Position numbers and translations under genes: made by a program. DNA of 64,000 bases, taken from the NCBI RefSeq assembly GCF_053078305.1, contig NZ_CP166879.1. One strand, 5' to 3'. The notes beneath the pieces were generated by a model that made no database searches, had not been told where the DNA came from, and saw nothing but the letters and a program-made list of their open reading frames with translations. Positions 5,609 through 52,846 of the stretch are shown piece by piece. The stretch's first letter is position 1, and each line of letters opens with the position of its first letter.

Positions 5609-7075
5609 ATGCTACGTATCGCTAAAGAAGCTCTGACGTTTGACGACGTTCTCCTCGTTCCTGCTCATTCTACTGTTCTGCCGAATACTGCTGACCTCAG
5701 CACCCAGCTGACGAAAACTATTCGTCTGAATATCCCTATGCTTTCCGCAGCAATGGATACCGTAACGGAAGCGCGCCTGGCTATTGCTCTGGCTCAGGAA
5801 GGCGGTATCGGCTTTATCCACAAAAACATGTCCATTGAACGCCAGGCAGAAGAAGTTCGCCGTGTGAAAAAACACGAATCTGGCGTGGTGACTGATCCGC
5901 AGACTGTTCTGCCAACCACGACGCTGCGCGAAGTGAAAGAACTGACCGAGCGTAACGGTTTTGCGGGCTATCCGGTCGTTACCGAAGAAAACGAACTGGT
6001 GGGTATTATCACCGGTCGTGACGTGCGTTTTGTTACCGACCTGAACCAGCCGGTTAGCGTTTACATGACGCCGAAAGAGCGTCTGGTCACCGTGCGTGAA
6101 GGTGAAGCCCGTGAAGTGGTGCTGGCAAAAATGCACGAAAAACGCGTTGAAAAAGCGCTGGTGGTTGATGACGAATTCCACCTGATCGGCATGATCACCG
6201 TGAAAGATTTCCAGAAAGCGGAACGTAAACCGAACGCCTGTAAAGACGAGCAAGGCCGTCTGCGTGTTGGTGCTGCAGTTGGCGCAGGTGCGGGTAACGA
6301 AGAGCGTGTTGACGCGCTGGTTGCCGCTGGCGTTGACGTTCTGCTGATCGACTCCTCCCACGGTCACTCAGAAGGCGTTTTGCAGCGTATCCGTGAAACC
6401 CGTGCTAAATATCCGGATCTGCAAATCATCGGCGGCAACGTGGCAACAGCTGCAGGTGCACGCGCTCTGGCAGAAGCTGGTTGCAGCGCGGTTAAAGTCG
6501 GTATCGGCCCTGGTTCTATCTGTACGACTCGTATCGTTACTGGCGTAGGTGTTCCGCAGATCACTGCCGTTGCTGACGCAGTTGAAGCCCTGGAAGGCAC
6601 CGGTATTCCGGTTATCGCAGATGGTGGTATTCGCTTCTCCGGCGACATCGCCAAAGCTATCGCCGCTGGCGCAAGCGCGGTGATGGTAGGTTCCATGCTG
6701 GCGGGTACTGAAGAATCTCCGGGTGAAATCGAACTCTACCAGGGCCGTTCTTACAAATCTTACCGTGGTATGGGTTCCCTGGGCGCGATGTCCAAAGGTT
6801 CCTCTGACCGTTATTTCCAGAGCGATAACGCTGCCGACAAACTGGTGCCGGAAGGTATCGAAGGTCGCGTAGCTTATAAAGGTCGCCTGAAAGAGATCAT
6901 TCACCAGCAGATGGGCGGCCTGCGCTCCTGTATGGGTTTGACCGGCTGTGGTACTATCGACGAACTGCGTACTAAAGCGGAGTTTGTACGTATCAGCGGT
7001 GCGGGCATTCAGGAAAGCCACGTTCACGACGTGACCATTACTAAAGAGTCCCCGAACTACCGTCTGGGCTCCTGA
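5609..7075 (+). CDS. guaB: IMP dehydrogenase
   Basis: 488 aa from ATG 5609 ([21 protein letters not shown]...), CBS and catalytic GSICTT motif; track ORF is N-extended to 5540. Confidence 0.96.
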
Positions 7076-7143: not shown

Positions 7144-8721
7144 ATGACGGAAAACATTCATAAGCATCGCATCCTCATTCTGGACTTCGGTTCTCAGTAC
7201 ACTCAACTGGTTGCGCGCCGCGTGCGTGAGCTGGGTGTTTACTGCGAACTGTGGGCGTGGGATGTGACAGAAGCACAAATTCGTGACTTCAATCCAAGCG
7301 GCATTATTCTTTCCGGCGGCCCGGAAAGTACTACTGAAGAAAACAGTCCGCGTGCGCCGCAGTATGTCTTTGAAGCAGGCGTACCGGTATTCGGCGTTTG
7401 CTATGGCATGCAGACCATGGCAATGCAGTTGGGCGGTCACGTTGAAGCCTCTAACGAACGTGAATTTGGCTACGCGCAGGTTGAAGTCGTAAACGACAGC
7501 GCACTGGTTCGCGGTATCGAAGATGCGCTGACCGCAGACGGTAAACCGCTGCTCGATGTCTGGATGAGCCACGGCGATAAAGTTACCGCTATCCCGTCCG
7601 ACTTCGTCACCGTAGCCAGCACCGAAAGCTGCCCGTTTGCCATTATGGCTAACGAAGAAAAACGCTTCTATGGCGTACAGTTCCACCCGGAAGTGACTCA
7701 CACCCGCCAGGGTATGCGCATGCTGGAGCGTTTTGTGCGTGATATCTGCCAGTGTGAAGCCCTGTGGACGCCAGCGAAAATTATCGACGATGCTGTAGCT
7801 CGCATCCGCGAGCAGGTAGGCGACGATAAAGTCATCCTCGGCCTCTCTGGTGGTGTGGATTCCTCCGTAACCGCAATGCTGCTGCACCGCGCTATCGGTA
7901 AAAACCTGACTTGCGTATTCGTCGACAACGGCCTGCTGCGTCTCAACGAAGCAGAGCAGGTTCTGGATATGTTTGGCGATCACTTTGGTCTTAACATTGT
8001 TCACGTACCGGCAGAAGATCGCTTCCTGTCAGCGCTGGCTGGCGAAAACGATCCGGAAGCAAAACGTAAAATCATCGGTCGCGTTTTCGTTGAAGTATTC
8101 GATGAAGAAGCGCTGAAACTGGAAGACGTGAAGTGGCTGGCACAGGGCACCATCTACCCTGACGTTATCGAATCTGCGGCGTCTGCAACCGGTAAAGCAC
8201 ACGTCATCAAATCTCACCACAACGTGGGCGGCCTGCCGAAAGAGATGAAGATGGGCCTGGTTGAACCGCTGAAAGAGCTGTTCAAAGACGAAGTGCGTAA
8301 GATTGGTCTGGAGCTGGGTCTACCGTACGACATGCTGTACCGTCACCCGTTCCCGGGACCAGGCCTTGGCGTTCGTGTTCTGGGTGAAGTGAAGAAAGAG
8401 TACTGTGACCTGCTGCGCCGTGCTGACGCCATCTTCATTGAAGAACTGCGTAAAGCGGATCTGTACGACAAAGTCAGCCAGGCGTTCACCGTCTTCCTGC
8501 CAGTACGTTCCGTTGGCGTAATGGGCGATGGTCGTAAGTATGACTGGGTTGTCTCTCTGCGTGCTGTCGAAACCATCGACTTTATGACCGCACACTGGGC
8601 GCATCTGCCGTACGATTTCCTCGGTCGCGTTTCCAACCGCATTATCAATGAAGTGAACGGTATTTCCCGCGTGGTGTATGACATCAGCGGCAAGCCGCCA
8701 GCTACCATTGAGTGGGAGTGA
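7144..8721 (+). CDS. guaA: GMP synthase (glutamine-hydrolysing)
   Basis: 525 aa, class-I GATase N-terminus, [10 protein letters not shown]-loop. Confidence 0.96.
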
Positions 8722-8761
8722 GGCTATTATTTAAACTATTGTTTTATTTGATTTAGTGAGT

Positions 8762-8800
8762 GCCATTGATGATATTGACTGCATTATCAATGGCATTTTT
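8762..8800 (+). terminator. AT-rich hairpin plus T-run downstream of guaA
   Basis: gccattgat (8762..8770) pairs with atcaatggc (8786..8794), followed by attttt. Confidence 0.4.
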
Positions 8801-9105
8801 CATGGTATAAGGCCGACGCTGAATCGAAGATATAGCAAATACCATGTGACTGTATCAGCAAATGCCATGGTATCGACAACCGGGGGCATTGCAGCGCTGT
8901 GCTGATGCCATCGATGCCCGCTTTTAGTCAGAACACTCTCTCGACCCAAGCCTCCAGATCCTTAAATATGCGCCAGAGGAGCACCTCGTGATCGAAATTA
9001 TGAACAAGACAGCCGCCGCTCGGAATCGAAGTCTCCATATGGGTGAATAAGGTTTGCGGAAAACACGCTGAGAAAATAGAAAAGCGTCAATGAAGGGACA
9101 TAGCA

Positions 9106-10386
9106 ATGGCGATTAACGGAGTGGACGGTGTTAGCGCAGTCACCGTGGATGAACTACTCAAGCAAGGCCTTCGGATACCGAACTATCAACGCCCATACAG
9201 TTGGGAAGTATCGACCGCTCTACAACTGGTGGATGATCTCAGCGAAGCTCTTCGAGATACCGAAAGAAAAGATATTCCCTATGTTTTGGGTGCAATCATT
9301 CTTCACGATGATGGTGAGTATCTCAATGTAGTCGACGGACAGCAACGTCTGCTGACTTTGCGAATGATTCTTGCGGCCTTAGATCCGATAAATCACCAAA
9401 TTTCGGTGTCTGGTAACAGAGAAACCTCTGTCTCCCTGGTTTGGATAGAGCTTCAAAGGCGCCTGTCGCAGTTGGAAGATAAAAAAGAATTTTTGGATTT
9501 TATCTGTCACAAATGTCAGTTGGTGCGTATTGTGACGGACGATATTGATGAGGCATTCCGTGTCTTTGATTCCCAGAACTATCGCGGCAAACCGCTTGCC
9601 CCTCATGACTTGCTCAAAGCACACCACCTGCGCGAAATGCACGATGAGTCCGCTGCTATGAAAGTGGCTGTCGTTGAGGCTTGGGAAGCCGTAAATGATG
9701 AGGATCTGGACAGGCTTTTTTCTACTTTTTTATACCGGATATCCAAGTGGTCACGAGGAGAAAGCTCGCTCGAATTTGCTATTCGGGACATCGGTATGTT
9801 CAAGGGAATTTCATCACGATCCCACAGATCATTTTCGCCAAATCTGCGATATCACCTTGCAGCACAAGCCGCTATGCCACTTCTAAGTGCATGGGCGGTG
9901 TCCTCGACACATGATGCTCGAAATGCCGGGCGCAGCCGCTTTCAGCTTGATGCCCCGATAATCGCTGGGCGCTCATTTTTCGAGATGGTGGCATTCATGC
10001 TTGACGAATTGAAGATACTGGAAAAAGAGGTTATCGACAAAGGTTTCAAAAACTTTGGCCCATCTCAAAGTCGCTACCGCTACGTGTACGAATTGTTCAT
10101 TGCCGCTCTGCTTTGCTATACAAACAAGTTTGGCGATGAAGATGTGGATGAAGTGCGAAATAGGTTATTCGCATGGGCATATGCCTTGCGGGTCGAGTTA
10201 CTTCGTGTGCAATTTGTATCTGCTGACAACCGAGCTCGAGGTAAAAACGATGCAAATAAATCGCCTTTTGTTTTGCTACGCAACGCGATGACTGGAAGTG
10301 TTGTCCGCAAACTTCCAATAGCAAGTCAGCCATACAACGATAACCACGAAAAGGAACTCATTGCTTTTATCAAGGGGCTGCAATGA
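9106..10386 (+). CDS. DUF262 (ParB/Srx-like NTPase, GmrS-like) protein; accessory gene A
   Basis: 426 aa; IPNYQRPYSW motif and DGQQR (nt 9334..9348); later FRVFDSQNYRGKPL motif; no HNH/His-Me motif seen in the C-terminal ~270 aa; ATG 9106 with GGGA RBS; stop overlaps the next start (ATGA at 10383..10386). Confidence 0.8.
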   Translation: MAINGVDGVSAVTVDELLKQGLRIPNYQRPYSWEVSTALQLVDDLSEALRDTERKDIPYVLGAIILHDDGEYLNVVDGQQRLLTLRMILAALDPINHQISVSGNRETSVSLVWIELQRRLSQLEDKKEFLDFICHKCQLVRIVTDDIDEAFRVFDSQNYRGKPLAPHDLLKAHHLREMHDESAAMKVAVVEAWEAVNDEDLDRLFSTFLYRISKWSRGESSLEFAIRDIGMFKGISSRSHRSFSPNLRYHLAAQAAMPLLSAWAVSSTHDARNAGRSRFQLDAPIIAGRSFFEMVAFMLDELKILEKEVIDKGFKNFGPSQSRYRYVYELFIAALLCYTNKFGDEDVDEVRNRLFAWAYALRVELLRVQFVSADNRARGKNDANKSPFVLLRNAMTGSVVRKLPIASQPYNDNHEKELIAFIKGLQ

Positions 10387-12335
10387 GCAAGAAGGAGTTG
10401 AAACCCGAACTGCTAACAGTAGGCAAGCTATTCACGGACAATTATCTGATTCCTATTTATCAACGGAACTATGCTTGGCGGGCCGAACAGATTGAGCAAC
10501 TTATCAGCGATATTCAAGACTCGGTTGTTGGGGGCCAGGACGACTATTTTCTTGGAAACCTTGTTGTAATCAAGCGGGGTAGAGAGGACGAGTTCGAGGT
10601 CATAGATGGACAACAACGACTTACAACCCTCTATCTGCTTCTGACCTTCCTGGAGCAAGACGGTGAGGGTGGGAAGCCGTCGATTGGCCATGCAGGCCAC
10701 TTGCAATATGAGTCGCGTGCACGGGCAACGGAAGCCCTGCGGCGAGTAGCACAGGAGGCGGCTAAGGGGCACGTCCGACCGCAGGGCTCCACGAGTAATG
10801 CAGATGCTGGCATCCATGAAGGCTACAGCATCATCAATCAGTTCTTCAAACAAAATGAAACCCTTAATTGCTCACGCGAAAAATTCTCCGATTTCTTGCT
10901 AACGAAGGTTACTGTCGTCCGTGCCTCGCTGCCACCCAATACAGATCTCAATCGCTACTTCGAGATCATGAACACTCGTGGGCAGCAACTCAAGCAGGTT
11001 GATATTGTTAAGGCTCGCCTGATGAGCAAGCTGCCCAATCAATATGAACGCGAATGCTTCGCCTGGGTTTGGGATGCCTGTGCTGAGATGGATTCTTATG
11101 TCCAGATGTCTCTGACCCGTGGTGACACCAGTTTGCGAAACAAAGTATTTGGCGATGAATGGTCCTGGCTGGAGGTGACCAGCTTCGCGTCGTTAATGGA
11201 AAGTCGTCCGCAATCCGGCATCAATTCTTCAAGGCAATCCTCCGAAGGGGTATCGTTGTCCTTGGATGAGGCGTTGTCAAAATACGCTAAAGAGATCGAG
11301 TCAAATTCCACTGAAGACGAGGGCAACGAGCGGTTTCGTTCGACTATTGAGTTTCCGGCCTTTCTGCTACACGTTCTAAGAATTATGAAAGGCGATGAGG
11401 TCGAAGACGAAGGCCAGCTTGACGACAAACGCCTCATCAAGTCATTTGACGACGCTGTAAATAATGTACCCGATGCTAAAGCCGATTGGGTGCGTAACTT
11501 TACATTCATGCTCCTCAAGTGCCGCAACCTCTTCGATGGCTTCATTTTGAAGCGTCAATTCACGGCGAACATCGGTGACGATGGCGATTGGTCTCTCCAG
11601 CGATTGAAGAAAGGCGGCGCGGACAAGAAGCCAACCCCGACGTATATCCATGTTTTCTCGGCCAGCAATGGAAACTTAGAGGAGGACGGCGGTGCTGACC
11701 CACATACCCGAGATGTATTGCTGCTTCAGTCCATGCTTCGGATAACCTACACTTCTCCGCGAACGATGCACTGGATTACCAAAGTTCTTCGCTGGCTATC
11801 CGTCAAAGCCCCTCAAGACGCGAAACATGCGGATCTTGCCGATTTGTTGAAGGGGTATGCCCGCAGCAAGGTCAAAGAGACATTCCCCTTTGAGGAAGAT
11901 CAGCAACCACAAGGGTTTGGTATCAGCCGCATCGTCTTTTCGTATCTCGACTATCTTCTGTTGAGCGATTCCTCAAAACGAGATTTCAAATTTCAGTTCA
12001 GAACTTCCATTGAGCACTTTTATCCACAGCATCCGGACAAAGAACAGTCGGGCGCGGTTGTTTCAGGTTCTAGCCTTAACCTGCTTGGCAACCTTGCGCT
12101 CGTAAGCGTCAGCGCGAACTCAAAATTCAGCAATAGCCTTCCCAGAGCGAAGGCCGAAAACTTCAAGGATACGATTGAACTTCAAAGTCCCAAGCTCAAG
12201 AGAATGGCGGAAATCACTCGAAATACAAGCTGGGACGATCAGCAGATAACAGCTCATCATGAAGAGATGGTGACATTGCTTCGTGATGATGTAAGTCTGG
12301 TGGAGGCAAGCGGAAGATCCTACCCGGGGCGTTGA
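10383..12335 (+). CDS. DUF262-DUF1524 protein (GmrSD/SspE/BrxU-family type IV restriction endonuclease-like); accessory gene B
   Basis: 650 aa; N-terminal IPIYQRNYAW plus DGQQR (10605..10619) plus FEIMNTRGQQL; C-terminal His-Me finger motifs SIEHFYPQHP (12009..12038) and NLLGNLALVSVSANSKFSN (about 12072..12128). Confidence 0.85.
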   Translation: MSKKELKPELLTVGKLFTDNYLIPIYQRNYAWRAEQIEQLISDIQDSVVGGQDDYFLGNLVVIKRGREDEFEVIDGQQRLTTLYLLLTFLEQDGEGGKPSIGHAGHLQYESRARATEALRRVAQEAAKGHVRPQGSTSNADAGIHEGYSIINQFFKQNETLNCSREKFSDFLLTKVTVVRASLPPNTDLNRYFEIMNTRGQQLKQVDIVKARLMSKLPNQYERECFAWVWDACAEMDSYVQMSLTRGDTSLRNKVFGDEWSWLEVTSFASLMESRPQSGINSSRQSSEGVSLSLDEALSKYAKEIESNSTEDEGNERFRSTIEFPAFLLHVLRIMKGDEVEDEGQLDDKRLIKSFDDAVNNVPDAKADWVRNFTFMLLKCRNLFDGFILKRQFTANIGDDGDWSLQRLKKGGADKKPTPTYIHVFSASNGNLEEDGGADPHTRDVLLLQSMLRITYTSPRTMHWITKVLRWLSVKAPQDAKHADLADLLKGYARSKVKETFPFEEDQQPQGFGISRIVFSYLDYLLLSDSSKRDFKFQFRTSIEHFYPQHPDKEQSGAVVSGSSLNLLGNLALVSVSANSKFSNSLPRAKAENFKDTIELQSPKLKRMAEITRNTSWDDQQITAHHEEMVTLLRDDVSLVEASGRSYPGR

Positions 12336-12553
12336 CTTCTTTGAATAACCGCTTTTGGACGAATGTCCCTTGTGGAGTGCAAGTTGTCAGTTTAAAAGTG
12401 TTTTGCGTCGGGCGACACGATCAGTACAGCTCCCAGGTTTTTTTACCATGGTATTTTGTGTGGTATCGACATGCAAAGATAATGCTATTTTGTTGATTTT
12501 ATAGTGTTTTAAGGCGGCATTGATCATCGAGTGGGAATAAACCCTGTACATAT

Positions 12554-12594
12554 TGCTGAAGTTTTCTTTTCGGATAAAACTTCAGCAGATTTTC
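12554..12594 (+). terminator. perfect 12-bp-stem hairpin downstream of the accessory operon
   Basis: tgctgaagtttt (12554..12565) is the exact reverse complement of aaaacttcagca (12576..12587), 10-nt loop, then GATTTTC; a T8 run follows at 12622..12629. Confidence 0.45.
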
Positions 12595-12686
12595 ACAGCA
12601 AACCCCTCTTATCTCTGGAGGTTTTTTTTACGCAAATTAAAAACCCATAACTCTCACGAATCATGGGCTTTGTGGTAGAAAGACGA

Positions 12687-13226
12687 TTAATTAAACCAAC
12701 CGTCCGATTTATTCTCTTCTGCTTTACCCACGCTTTTCATCAAATCGCGACCGCCTTCTGTCACATTTCTGTTAGCGTCAGCTTCAGATTGCACGACATC
12801 AGTTTGCGCGGCTTTGTGCTTCAGCTCCTGGTCGATAAACTCGTTCTCTCGCTTAACGCGGGCTTCTTCTTTCGCCAGCGCCAGCTTTTGTTTCTGAATC
12901 TCTAAGCTGCGCAGCTCATCTTCATAACTTTGATCGCGTTTTTTATCCGCGGTGGCTTCGGCGTCCAGTTTATCCTGACGAGCTTTCTTATCCGCTGCTG
13001 CTGCCGCCGCTCTTTTGTTAGCGGCGGCCTGGGCATTTGCGCGACGTTGCTTCTCTTGCTGGATTTCCCTGTTGCGCTCCGCGACCCATTCGTCATGCTG
13101 CCTTTGCTCTTCATTTTTACCTTGCTGTTCCGCTTCTGCGACAGCAGAGAGTTGATCCTGCAATGATGAGGCGATAGCCGGATAGCTTAAGGAGACCAAG
13201 ATGGCGCAAAGAAAAACTTTCTTCAT
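12687..13226 (-). CDS. yfgI: YfgI, secreted coiled-coil protein
   Basis: 179 aa, signal peptide, K/E/Q-rich; recognised as YfgI. Confidence 0.9.
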   Translation of the reverse strand: MKKVFLCAILVSLSYPAIASSLQDQLSAVAEAEQQGKNEEQRQHDEWVAERNREIQQEKQRRANAQAAANKRAAAAAADKKARQDKLDAEATADKKRDQSYEDELRSLEIQKQKLALAKEEARVKRENEFIDQELKHKAAQTDVVQSEADANRNVTEGGRDLMKSVGKAEENKSDGWFN

Positions 13227-13241
13227 GACTCCTCCTGATTA

Positions 13242-13760
13242 TTAGCTCTTTTCAGGACATTTGGTATTTGGCTGAATACGCGTTTCGTTATACGTCGTGG
13301 TAATAACAACGGCTAAACCTGTCGTAAACTGGCACTCTTTACCCACCTGAGTAGAGGTATACACTTTGGTGCCTTCCTTATACGTTAAAGAAACACCTTC
13401 CACTAAGGTTTTATCATTCACCATAGAACCCGCTGCCGCGCCTACAGCTCCGCCGCCAACTGCACCTGCCGTCGTTCCGGAATTGCTGCCAGACCCGACG
13501 TTGTGGCCGATAACACCGCCAGCGACTGCGCCAATAAGCGCGCCGAAGGCTTGTGCGTTCCGTTTATTTTGGGAGTTGTCTACGGCAACTTTTGCGGGAA
13601 GAATGGAAATAATATTAACGGTTTTAGTTTCTTGTTTGGTATTCAGTTGATCGGTTTGATAAACATCGGCGGCATGATCGTCAGCATTTGACTGGCATCC
13701 TGCCAGAGTGAATGACGCTAACATTGCCACAGGCAGAAGACATTTTTTAAATTTCATCAC
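13242..13760 (-). CDS. yfgH: YfgH, glycine-zipper outer-membrane lipoprotein
   Basis: Lipobox LAGCQ, Gly-rich GALIGAVAGGVIGHNVGSG segment; start may be the ATG at 13757 rather than the GTG at 13760. Confidence 0.9.
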   Translation of the reverse strand: MMKFKKCLLPVAMLASFTLAGCQSNADDHAADVYQTDQLNTKQETKTVNIISILPAKVAVDNSQNKRNAQAFGALIGAVAGGVIGHNVGSGSNSGTTAGAVGGGAVGAAAGSMVNDKTLVEGVSLTYKEGTKVYTSTQVGKECQFTTGLAVVITTTYNETRIQPNTKCPEKS

Positions 13761-52812: not shown

Positions 52813-52846
52813 AAAAAGGCGACACATTAGCATGTCGCCTTTTTTA
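52813..52846. terminator. bidirectional terminator between ypfM and acrD
   Basis: aaaaggcgacac attagc atgtcgcctttttt. Confidence 0.6.

Follow-up and report, generated by a model that had tools for sequence, protein, structure and literature searches.

The stretch of DNA analysed here (64 000 nucleotides of contig NZ_CP166879.1, assembly GCF_053078305.1; hereafter the window) carries the guaB–guaA genes of E. coli, a 3.8 kb insert and then yfgI on the opposite strand (Table 1). Between the insert and yfgI lies the 77 bp feature considered in this work (12554–12630). A sequence-only reading had described in this convergent zone a perfect 12 bp stem with a 10-nucleotide loop at 12554–12587 (here termed hairpin A), the heptamer GATTTTC behind it and a T8 run at 12622–12629, and all of these coordinates and sequences are exact. 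The T8 run belongs to a smaller structure (hairpin B), and a further hairpin, on the minus strand, lies next to yfgI.

Table 1. Features of the guaA–yfgI region, with positions numbered along the window.
Feature	Position	Strand	Basis and remarks
guaA	7144–8721	+	Open reading frame; annotated as guaA in identical loci; alignment to the K-12 empty site
attL core GAGTGGGA, GIsul2 family, at the 3' end of guaA	8710–8717	+	Direct repeat; published core
Module hairpin, 13 bp arms followed by T5	8761–8800	+	Just past the rebuilt guaA stop codon; inverted repeat, fold
Module gene 1, GmrSD_N (DUF262) + DUF7834, 426 amino acids	9106–10386	+	Pfam; PADLOC matches to HEC-06, Orf5 and SspE-type N-terminal domains
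Module gene 2, GmrSD_N + GmrSD_C (DUF262 + DUF1524-type nuclease), 650 amino acids	10383–12335	+	Pfam, PADLOC
attR core GAGTGGGA, right end of the module	12529–12536	+	Direct repeat; limits of homology in plasmids and EcPF16
Divergent tract, recombined from a non-coli Escherichia lineage	12537 to ~13005		Identity profile against K-12; table of variable sites; holds hairpin A, T8 and the yfgI terminator
29-nucleotide stretch, 5' arm and loop of hairpin A	12550–12578		Absent from the otherwise homologous L007-type empty site (alignment)
Hairpin A, perfect 12 bp stem	12554–12587	+	One copy per genome; in 11 of 5426 genomes
Hairpin B, weak stem CCTCT/GGAGG with T8	12605–12629	+	Terminator scan; −5.8/−4.8 kcal/mol; d-score +3.5; homology to the K-12 and L007 terminators
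Predicted intrinsic terminator of yfgI	12635–12671	−	14 bp stem at 12640–12671; U-rich tail UUUUUAAUUU down to 12635
yfgI (DUF5384), mosaic	12687–13226	−	3' part (12687 to ~13005) like Escherichia sp. E1V33, the rest like K-12

The insert is a module flanked by two direct copies of the octamer GAGTGGGA; 5'-GAGTGGGA-3' at the 3' end of guaA has been described as the GIsul2 core (PMC9376610). At its left end the module supplies the last codons of guaA from the core onwards, including a new last codon and stop codon (GAGTGA), and the vestigial guaA stop codon, a TAA at 12538–12540, is found after the right-hand core. The arms of the hairpin that stands just past the rebuilt stop codon (8761–8795) fold at −15.3 kcal/mol, with a borderline d-score of −2.5; this score is the classical stem-and-tail formula with a threshold of 0, after d'Aubenton-Carafa et al. 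(1990), run with modern energy parameters. This hairpin probably serves as a substitute terminator for guaA, since that of the host now lies past the far end of the module. Judging from their domains, the two module genes encode a GmrSD-like type IV restriction pair, and no integrase gene was found within the 3.8 kb.

The module resembles elements of the GIsul2 family in its 8 bp core and in its target at the 3' end of guaA, and it resembles the sub-units of that family, such as the CR2-sul2 unit, in lying between two cores without an integrase of its own; it differs from the CR2-sul2 unit in its cargo, which consists of GmrSD-like restriction genes and not of rcr2 and sul2 (PMC9376610). In this family, the integrase of the island moves a sub-unit that is flanked by an internal att site (attLR) on one side and by attR on the other (PMC9376610). 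The E. coli strain EcPF16 carries the module, 95.6% identical over 8707–12538, as the distal unit of a 19 kb GIsul2-like island with integrase, repA and trbJ/trbL genes, from which the 3.8 kb unit is separated by an internal core, and in one Klebsiella plasmid that was examined the whole unit lies between two copies of GAGTGGG with unrelated DNA beyond. The occurrence of the module alone at guaA, in the EcPF16 island and on some 450 Klebsiella plasmids suggests mobilization in trans by an integrase of the GIsul2 type. Motifs resembling CCATGGTATCGACA are present near both inner ends of the module (an exact copy at 8865–8878, and ACCATGGTAT and GTGGTATCGACA at 12446–12471), where they overlap an imperfect inverted repeat of 28 nucleotides (8860–8887 with 12429–12456). 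With one exact copy and one copy with three mismatches in the module, CCATGGTATCGACA may mark arm-type integrase sites, which is too little for a claim.

The right-hand limit of the module is defined by several independent sets of copies. In 455 plasmid records, of which 451 are from Klebsiella, homology to the right end reaches no further than 12535, and in the EcPF16 island it stops at 12538. The break in the plasmid copies, as in copies within a tandem array, falls precisely at the GAGTGGGA core (12529–12536). In the 68 other E. coli genomes that have the right end of the module, homology to the flank of the window ceases just before hairpin A; two of these that were aligned, A30 and EcPF16, continue after the core with an ordinary E. 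coli flank and a K-12-type terminator. The positions of the cores, together with the plasmid and EcPF16 breakpoints, place the end of the element at 12536. Since hairpin A starts 17 nucleotides later, it is not an element end, as the sequence-only reading had proposed among other possibilities, and it lies outside the element, in which respect the locus differs from a GIsul2-family element. The GAGTGGGA core that a GIsul2-family att site of ~19 bp would contain was not found within 12554–12630.

In hairpin A itself, TGCTGAAGTTTT (12554–12565) is perfectly complementary to AAAACTTCAGCA (12576–12587) across a spacer of 10 nucleotides, with GATTTTC following at 12588–12594. Folding of the hairpin alone gave −14.8 kcal/mol compared with −4.6 ± 2.1 kcal/mol in shuffled sequences (z −4.8). 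Within the 64 kb window, inverted repeats with perfect arms of 12 bp or more and a loop of 3–20 nucleotides occur at two places, against 0.03 expected from first-order Markov simulations, and hairpin A is therefore unlikely to be due to chance. The only other such repeat, at 52813–52844 (AAAAAGGCGACACATTAGCATGTCGCCTTTTT), resembles a classic bidirectional terminator.

As a terminator, hairpin A scores poorly. Its stem is AU-rich, with G–C pairs at four of 12 positions, and closes a 10-nucleotide loop, unlike the G+C-rich, short-looped stem of a typical terminator; the tail GAUUUUCACAGC offers only four U residues, beyond a 2-nucleotide gap, rather than a U-tract directly after the stem. The resulting tail score is 1.1–1.9, compared with 4–5 at accepted sites, and the d-score lies between −57 and −43. 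A terminator scan did not pick up hairpin A, which falls outside the scan criteria, and a promoter scan of 12336–12553 found none. The suggested RNA structure may exist but received no support: a search of 8600–13300 with the Rfam 15 covariance models at a permissive threshold returned only two chance-level matches (E ~6–7), both away from hairpin A, and no sequence variation exists within hairpin A among its 11 carriers.

Nor does hairpin A behave as a many-copy repeat of the REP or MITE kind, being single in the window and occupying just one site in the genome of each of the 11 carriers. Its arms, with any loop of 4–16 nucleotides, were found in public collections at three metagenome loci and one viral locus, all with other loops and unrelated flanks, and these matches are attributed to chance; the phage collection held no match. 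Chance also accounts for a 14-nucleotide inverted match at 12122–12135, about one such match being expected per 4 kb by our own estimate, and the small open reading frames over hairpin A (12553–12678 on the plus strand and 12387–12551 on the minus strand) straddle the boundary between element and backbone and are unsupported. Hairpin A is thus not an element end, a typical terminator, a member of a repeat family or a known RNA.

The T8 run at 12622–12629 is not free-standing, but adjoins the 5 bp stem CCTCT/GGAGG (12605–12621). This small stem with its T8 is the sole plus-strand site with the properties of a terminator, having a stem followed by a U-tract on the same strand as the cassette and the vestigial guaA stop codon and downstream of both, although its d-score of +3.5 is marginal. 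The proposal that a cassette terminator lies here consequently holds for the zone, through the stem and T8 at 12605–12629, but not for the AU-rich 12 bp hairpin with its strongly negative score. At the empty site of K-12 the order is ATTGAGTGGGAATGA, a further 24 nucleotides, the bidirectional terminator AAAACCCTCTGTTACTACAGAGGGTTTTTT, which begins 35 nucleotides past the core, and yfgI. The diverged copy in the window, AAACCCCTCTTATCTCTGGAGGTTTTTTTT, aligns to the terminator of the cassette-free L007 genome (AAAACCCTCTGATCTCTGGAGGGTTTTTTT) and, by position, to that of K-12, and alignments with K-12, ATCC 25922 and L007 agree in placing the T8 site at the position of the guaA/yfgI terminator. 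Because AAACCCCTCTTATCTCTGGAGGTTTTTTTT aligns with the L007 and K-12 terminators, T8 is the U-tract of the displaced guaA terminator, and on these alignments the site is a decayed homologue of the bidirectional intrinsic guaA/yfgI terminator of the backbone.

The two versions share their position relative to the guaA stop codon and att core and to yfgI, and both are flanked by a run of A at one end and a run of T at the opposite end. They differ in strength, the K-12 guaA-sense terminator AAAACCCTCTGTTACTACAGAGGGTTTTTT reaching −17.8 kcal/mol and a d-score of +32 compared with −5.8 kcal/mol and +3.5 for hairpin B, in the stem, which in the window is reduced to five pairs including one G–U, and in the additional 12 bp hairpin that precedes it in the window. 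Of 5426 complete E. coli genomes, 5405 have a terminator segment of the K-12 type. General support for terminators shared between convergent E. coli genes is offered by part of the bidirectional-terminator literature (bioRxiv 10.1101/2022.10.23.513370).

On the minus strand, the hairpin in the yfgI sense had been described as the weaker one; it is in fact the strongest of the three structures, with a 14 bp stem, a folding energy of −18.2 kcal/mol (z −7.0) and a U5 run behind the stem, and it attains a d-score of +13.1 with its tail UUUUUAAUUU. Across four lineages (the window, L007, E1V33 and E. whittamii) both sides have changed at four of the 14 pairs, and 98% of cells are paired, compared with 34–55% when the partners are slid. 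The yfgI-sense hairpin thus joins a stable stem and a U-tract to compensatory changes, and the earlier suggestion that it may terminate yfgI is well supported by this covariation. The usual E. coli allele is without the 3' arm of this hairpin and depends on the shared bidirectional terminator, and in this it differs from the window, which has a separate yfgI terminator 3' of its T8 site.

The DNA in which these structures lie is not that of an ordinary E. coli. Identity to K-12, per 100 alignment columns, is 43–62% in the spacer, 91–94% up to ~13020 and mostly 98–100% thereafter, and yfgI is correspondingly mosaic, its 3' part having the variants of Escherichia sp. E1V33 and its 5' part those of K-12; an exact-protein look-up found this mosaic YfgI only beside the module. 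The segment 12539–12660 is present in only 11 of the 5426 complete E. coli genomes, as one copy in each and 100% identical in all, and every one of the 11 carries one and the same cassette allele. These carriers are not clonal: four that were examined (L001, L031, L032 and L033) show 141–166 alignment differences from the window in 12 kb (~1%). Comparison of the window with L001, L031 and L032 showed that the right-hand breakpoints also vary among carriers (~13005, ~12825 and ~12690), a sign that the margin of the imported block has recombined more than once. As a separate observation, the guaA–yfgI spacer is an insertion hotspot: depending on the Escherichia lineage, some of them non-coli, the site holds genes for an acyltransferase, an IS accompanied by a Fic gene, or genes for phage lysis (L008/L029 (E1V33), L009, L038 and L047).

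The origin of hairpin A is illuminated by a cassette-free lineage of the L007 type. Its empty site, which does not vary among four assemblies, reads GAGTGGGAATAATCCCGATAC joined directly to ACTTCAGTAGATTTTGACAGC, with its terminator behind. The counterpart in the window consists of GAGTGGGAATAAACCCTGTAC, ATATTGCTGAAGTTTTCTTTTCGGATAAA and ACTTCAGCAGATTTTCACAGC in succession, likewise followed by the terminator, and the middle segment corresponds to 12550–12578. These 29 nucleotides are the sole difference between the two, both flanks and nine nucleotides of the 3' arm being common to them, and the presence of those parts at the L007-type empty site means that they are backbone. No microhomology pointing to insertion or deletion of the 29 nucleotides was seen, and a search for their source in ~0.5 Mb of collected loci and the rest of the window gave matches only to the 3' arm and flank in genomes of the L007 type.

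Whether the hairpin occurs in genomes that lack the cassette had been put forward as a refuting test, in that its presence there would make it simply backbone. The answer is divided: the flanking sequence and nine nucleotides of the 3' arm do occur in a cassette-free Escherichia lineage, but the complete hairpin was found neither among the YfgI loci of species-representative genomes, nor in a search for exact matches to four protein variants of YfgI or YfgH, nor in the 5426 E. coli genomes by sensitive blastn with an 11-base word. On the strength of its flanks and of the module boundary, hairpin A is most likely to be donor backbone, and to represent a palindromic indel of 29 nucleotides, specific to this lineage, in the backbone spacer.

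A different palindrome, ATATTGCTGAC-TAAA-GTTAGCAATAT, is found between the guaA and yfgI terminators in another empty-site allele of non-coli Escherichia (L037, 5075–5206; also L042, L043, L045, L046 and L049), and E. whittamii has TATATTGCAATATA at the same position; L009 (~6560–6600) was part of this comparison. The L037-type palindrome and hairpin A lie on opposite sides of the terminator and share the 10-mer ATATTGCTGA, which may reflect related unstable palindromes or chance.

Taken together, these results are probably best explained by reading the 77 bp feature as a zone of convergent terminators in the guaA–yfgI spacer, that is, chromosomal backbone beside a module inserted at the end of guaA, with a flank brought in by recombination and a plus-strand end that is likely to be the U8 site. 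Other readings of hairpin A have to be set against this account. An unlikely one is that hairpin A and its GAUUUUC form the working terminator of the cassette operon and offset the decayed stem of the U8 terminator downstream. Past the cassette stop codon at 12335, hairpin A is the first stable structure, 12336–12553 being without a terminator-like site; it folds at −14.8 kcal/mol, the next structure, hairpin B, is weak (−5.8 compared with −17.8 kcal/mol in K-12), and hairpin A and the weakened terminator co-occur in this allele only. Set against these points are the very properties of the hairpin, namely its few G–C pairs and 10-nucleotide loop, the four U residues after a 2-nucleotide spacer, a d-score far below the threshold of 0 and the failure of the consensus scan to find it. 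Less probable again is the idea that hairpin A is one of a set of functionless spacer palindromes, kin to ATATTGCTGAC-TAAA-GTTAGCAATAT, that grow and shrink through template switching during replication. It would account for the 10-mer ATATTGCTGA held in common with the L037-type palindrome, for TATATTGCAATATA at the L037 position in E. whittamii and for the presence, within the 29 extra nucleotides, of the exact reverse complement of the adjoining backbone ACTTCAGCA, but two spacers of ~150 nucleotides would share a 10-mer by chance in a few percent of cases, which is not negligible, the L037 and window palindromes occupy non-homologous positions and no intermediate alleles were found.

A functional role was also considered, in which hairpin A would be no passive backbone indel but a selected cis-element of this module allele, either a processing or stability determinant or a small RNA derived from the 3' untranslated region, that sets expression of the GmrSD-like genes; alternatively, it would belong to a self-extending, spacer-specific family of palindromes. 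This reading is somewhat more doubtful than that of the functionless palindromes. Two observations do count against the terminator-zone account: hairpin A is strictly confined to a single cassette allele (11 of 11), which a functional link with the cassette would equally explain, and 100% identity of a perfect 12 bp palindrome in backgrounds that diverge by ~1% could reflect selection rather than recent spread. The cis-element reading would be consistent with that linkage and with an identity that persists across differing recombination breakpoints. Least probable of all, and largely refuted, is membership of the imported element, whether as an outer part of attR, as a site bound by the integrase or by some accessory protein, or as the scar of another small element. 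Hairpin A is seen solely in genomes with this cassette allele, it is close to the attR core (17 nucleotides) and it is a perfect palindrome, as is common among protein-binding sites. Nevertheless, the module is without it in the 68 other E. coli genomes and the 455 plasmid records, where homology ends at the core, the att sites of the GIsul2 family are described as 19 bp (PMC9376610), both flanks of the 29-nucleotide difference are backbone in a cassette-free genome, a second GAGTGGGA core is absent and the hairpin is single-copy with no related copy elsewhere.

In the terminator-zone account, which is favoured here, the 77 bp feature is backbone rather than part of the inserted element. Insertion at the 3' end of guaA left the original guaA terminator distal to the module, where module transcripts would now run into it. 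In this strain and ten others, the spacer and the 3' end of yfgI were acquired from a non-coli Escherichia lineage through homologous recombination, and the module most likely arrived with them. Termination on the plus strand would most likely occur at the U8 site, and hairpin A would be transcribed within the 3' untranslated region of the module, where it would have no more than an accessory role as a barrier in front of the weakened terminator, such as pausing the polymerase or shielding the transcript from 3' exonucleases.

Stable stem-loops in 3' untranslated regions, such as the REP-type stabilizers, protect bacterial mRNAs from 3'-to-5' exonucleases. Hairpin A is similar to these in its stability and in its place ahead of the terminator, within the 3' untranslated part of an operon, but differs from them in being single-copy, outside any repeat family and AU-rich.

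The direct significance of the feature is small, as it is a terminator zone and not the end of a mobile element. Its analysis does, on the other hand, fix the exact limits of a 3.8 kb att-bounded restriction module that is common to the guaA site of E. coli, GIsul2-like islands and Klebsiella plasmids. For annotation, elements inserted at the 3' end of guaA provide the gene with a new stop codon and a terminator-like hairpin, and the guaA terminator of the host passes to their last gene. The DNA that flanks an island can itself be foreign, through recombination with a sister species, and the absence of a sequence from empty-site E. coli genomes is therefore not equivalent to membership of the island.
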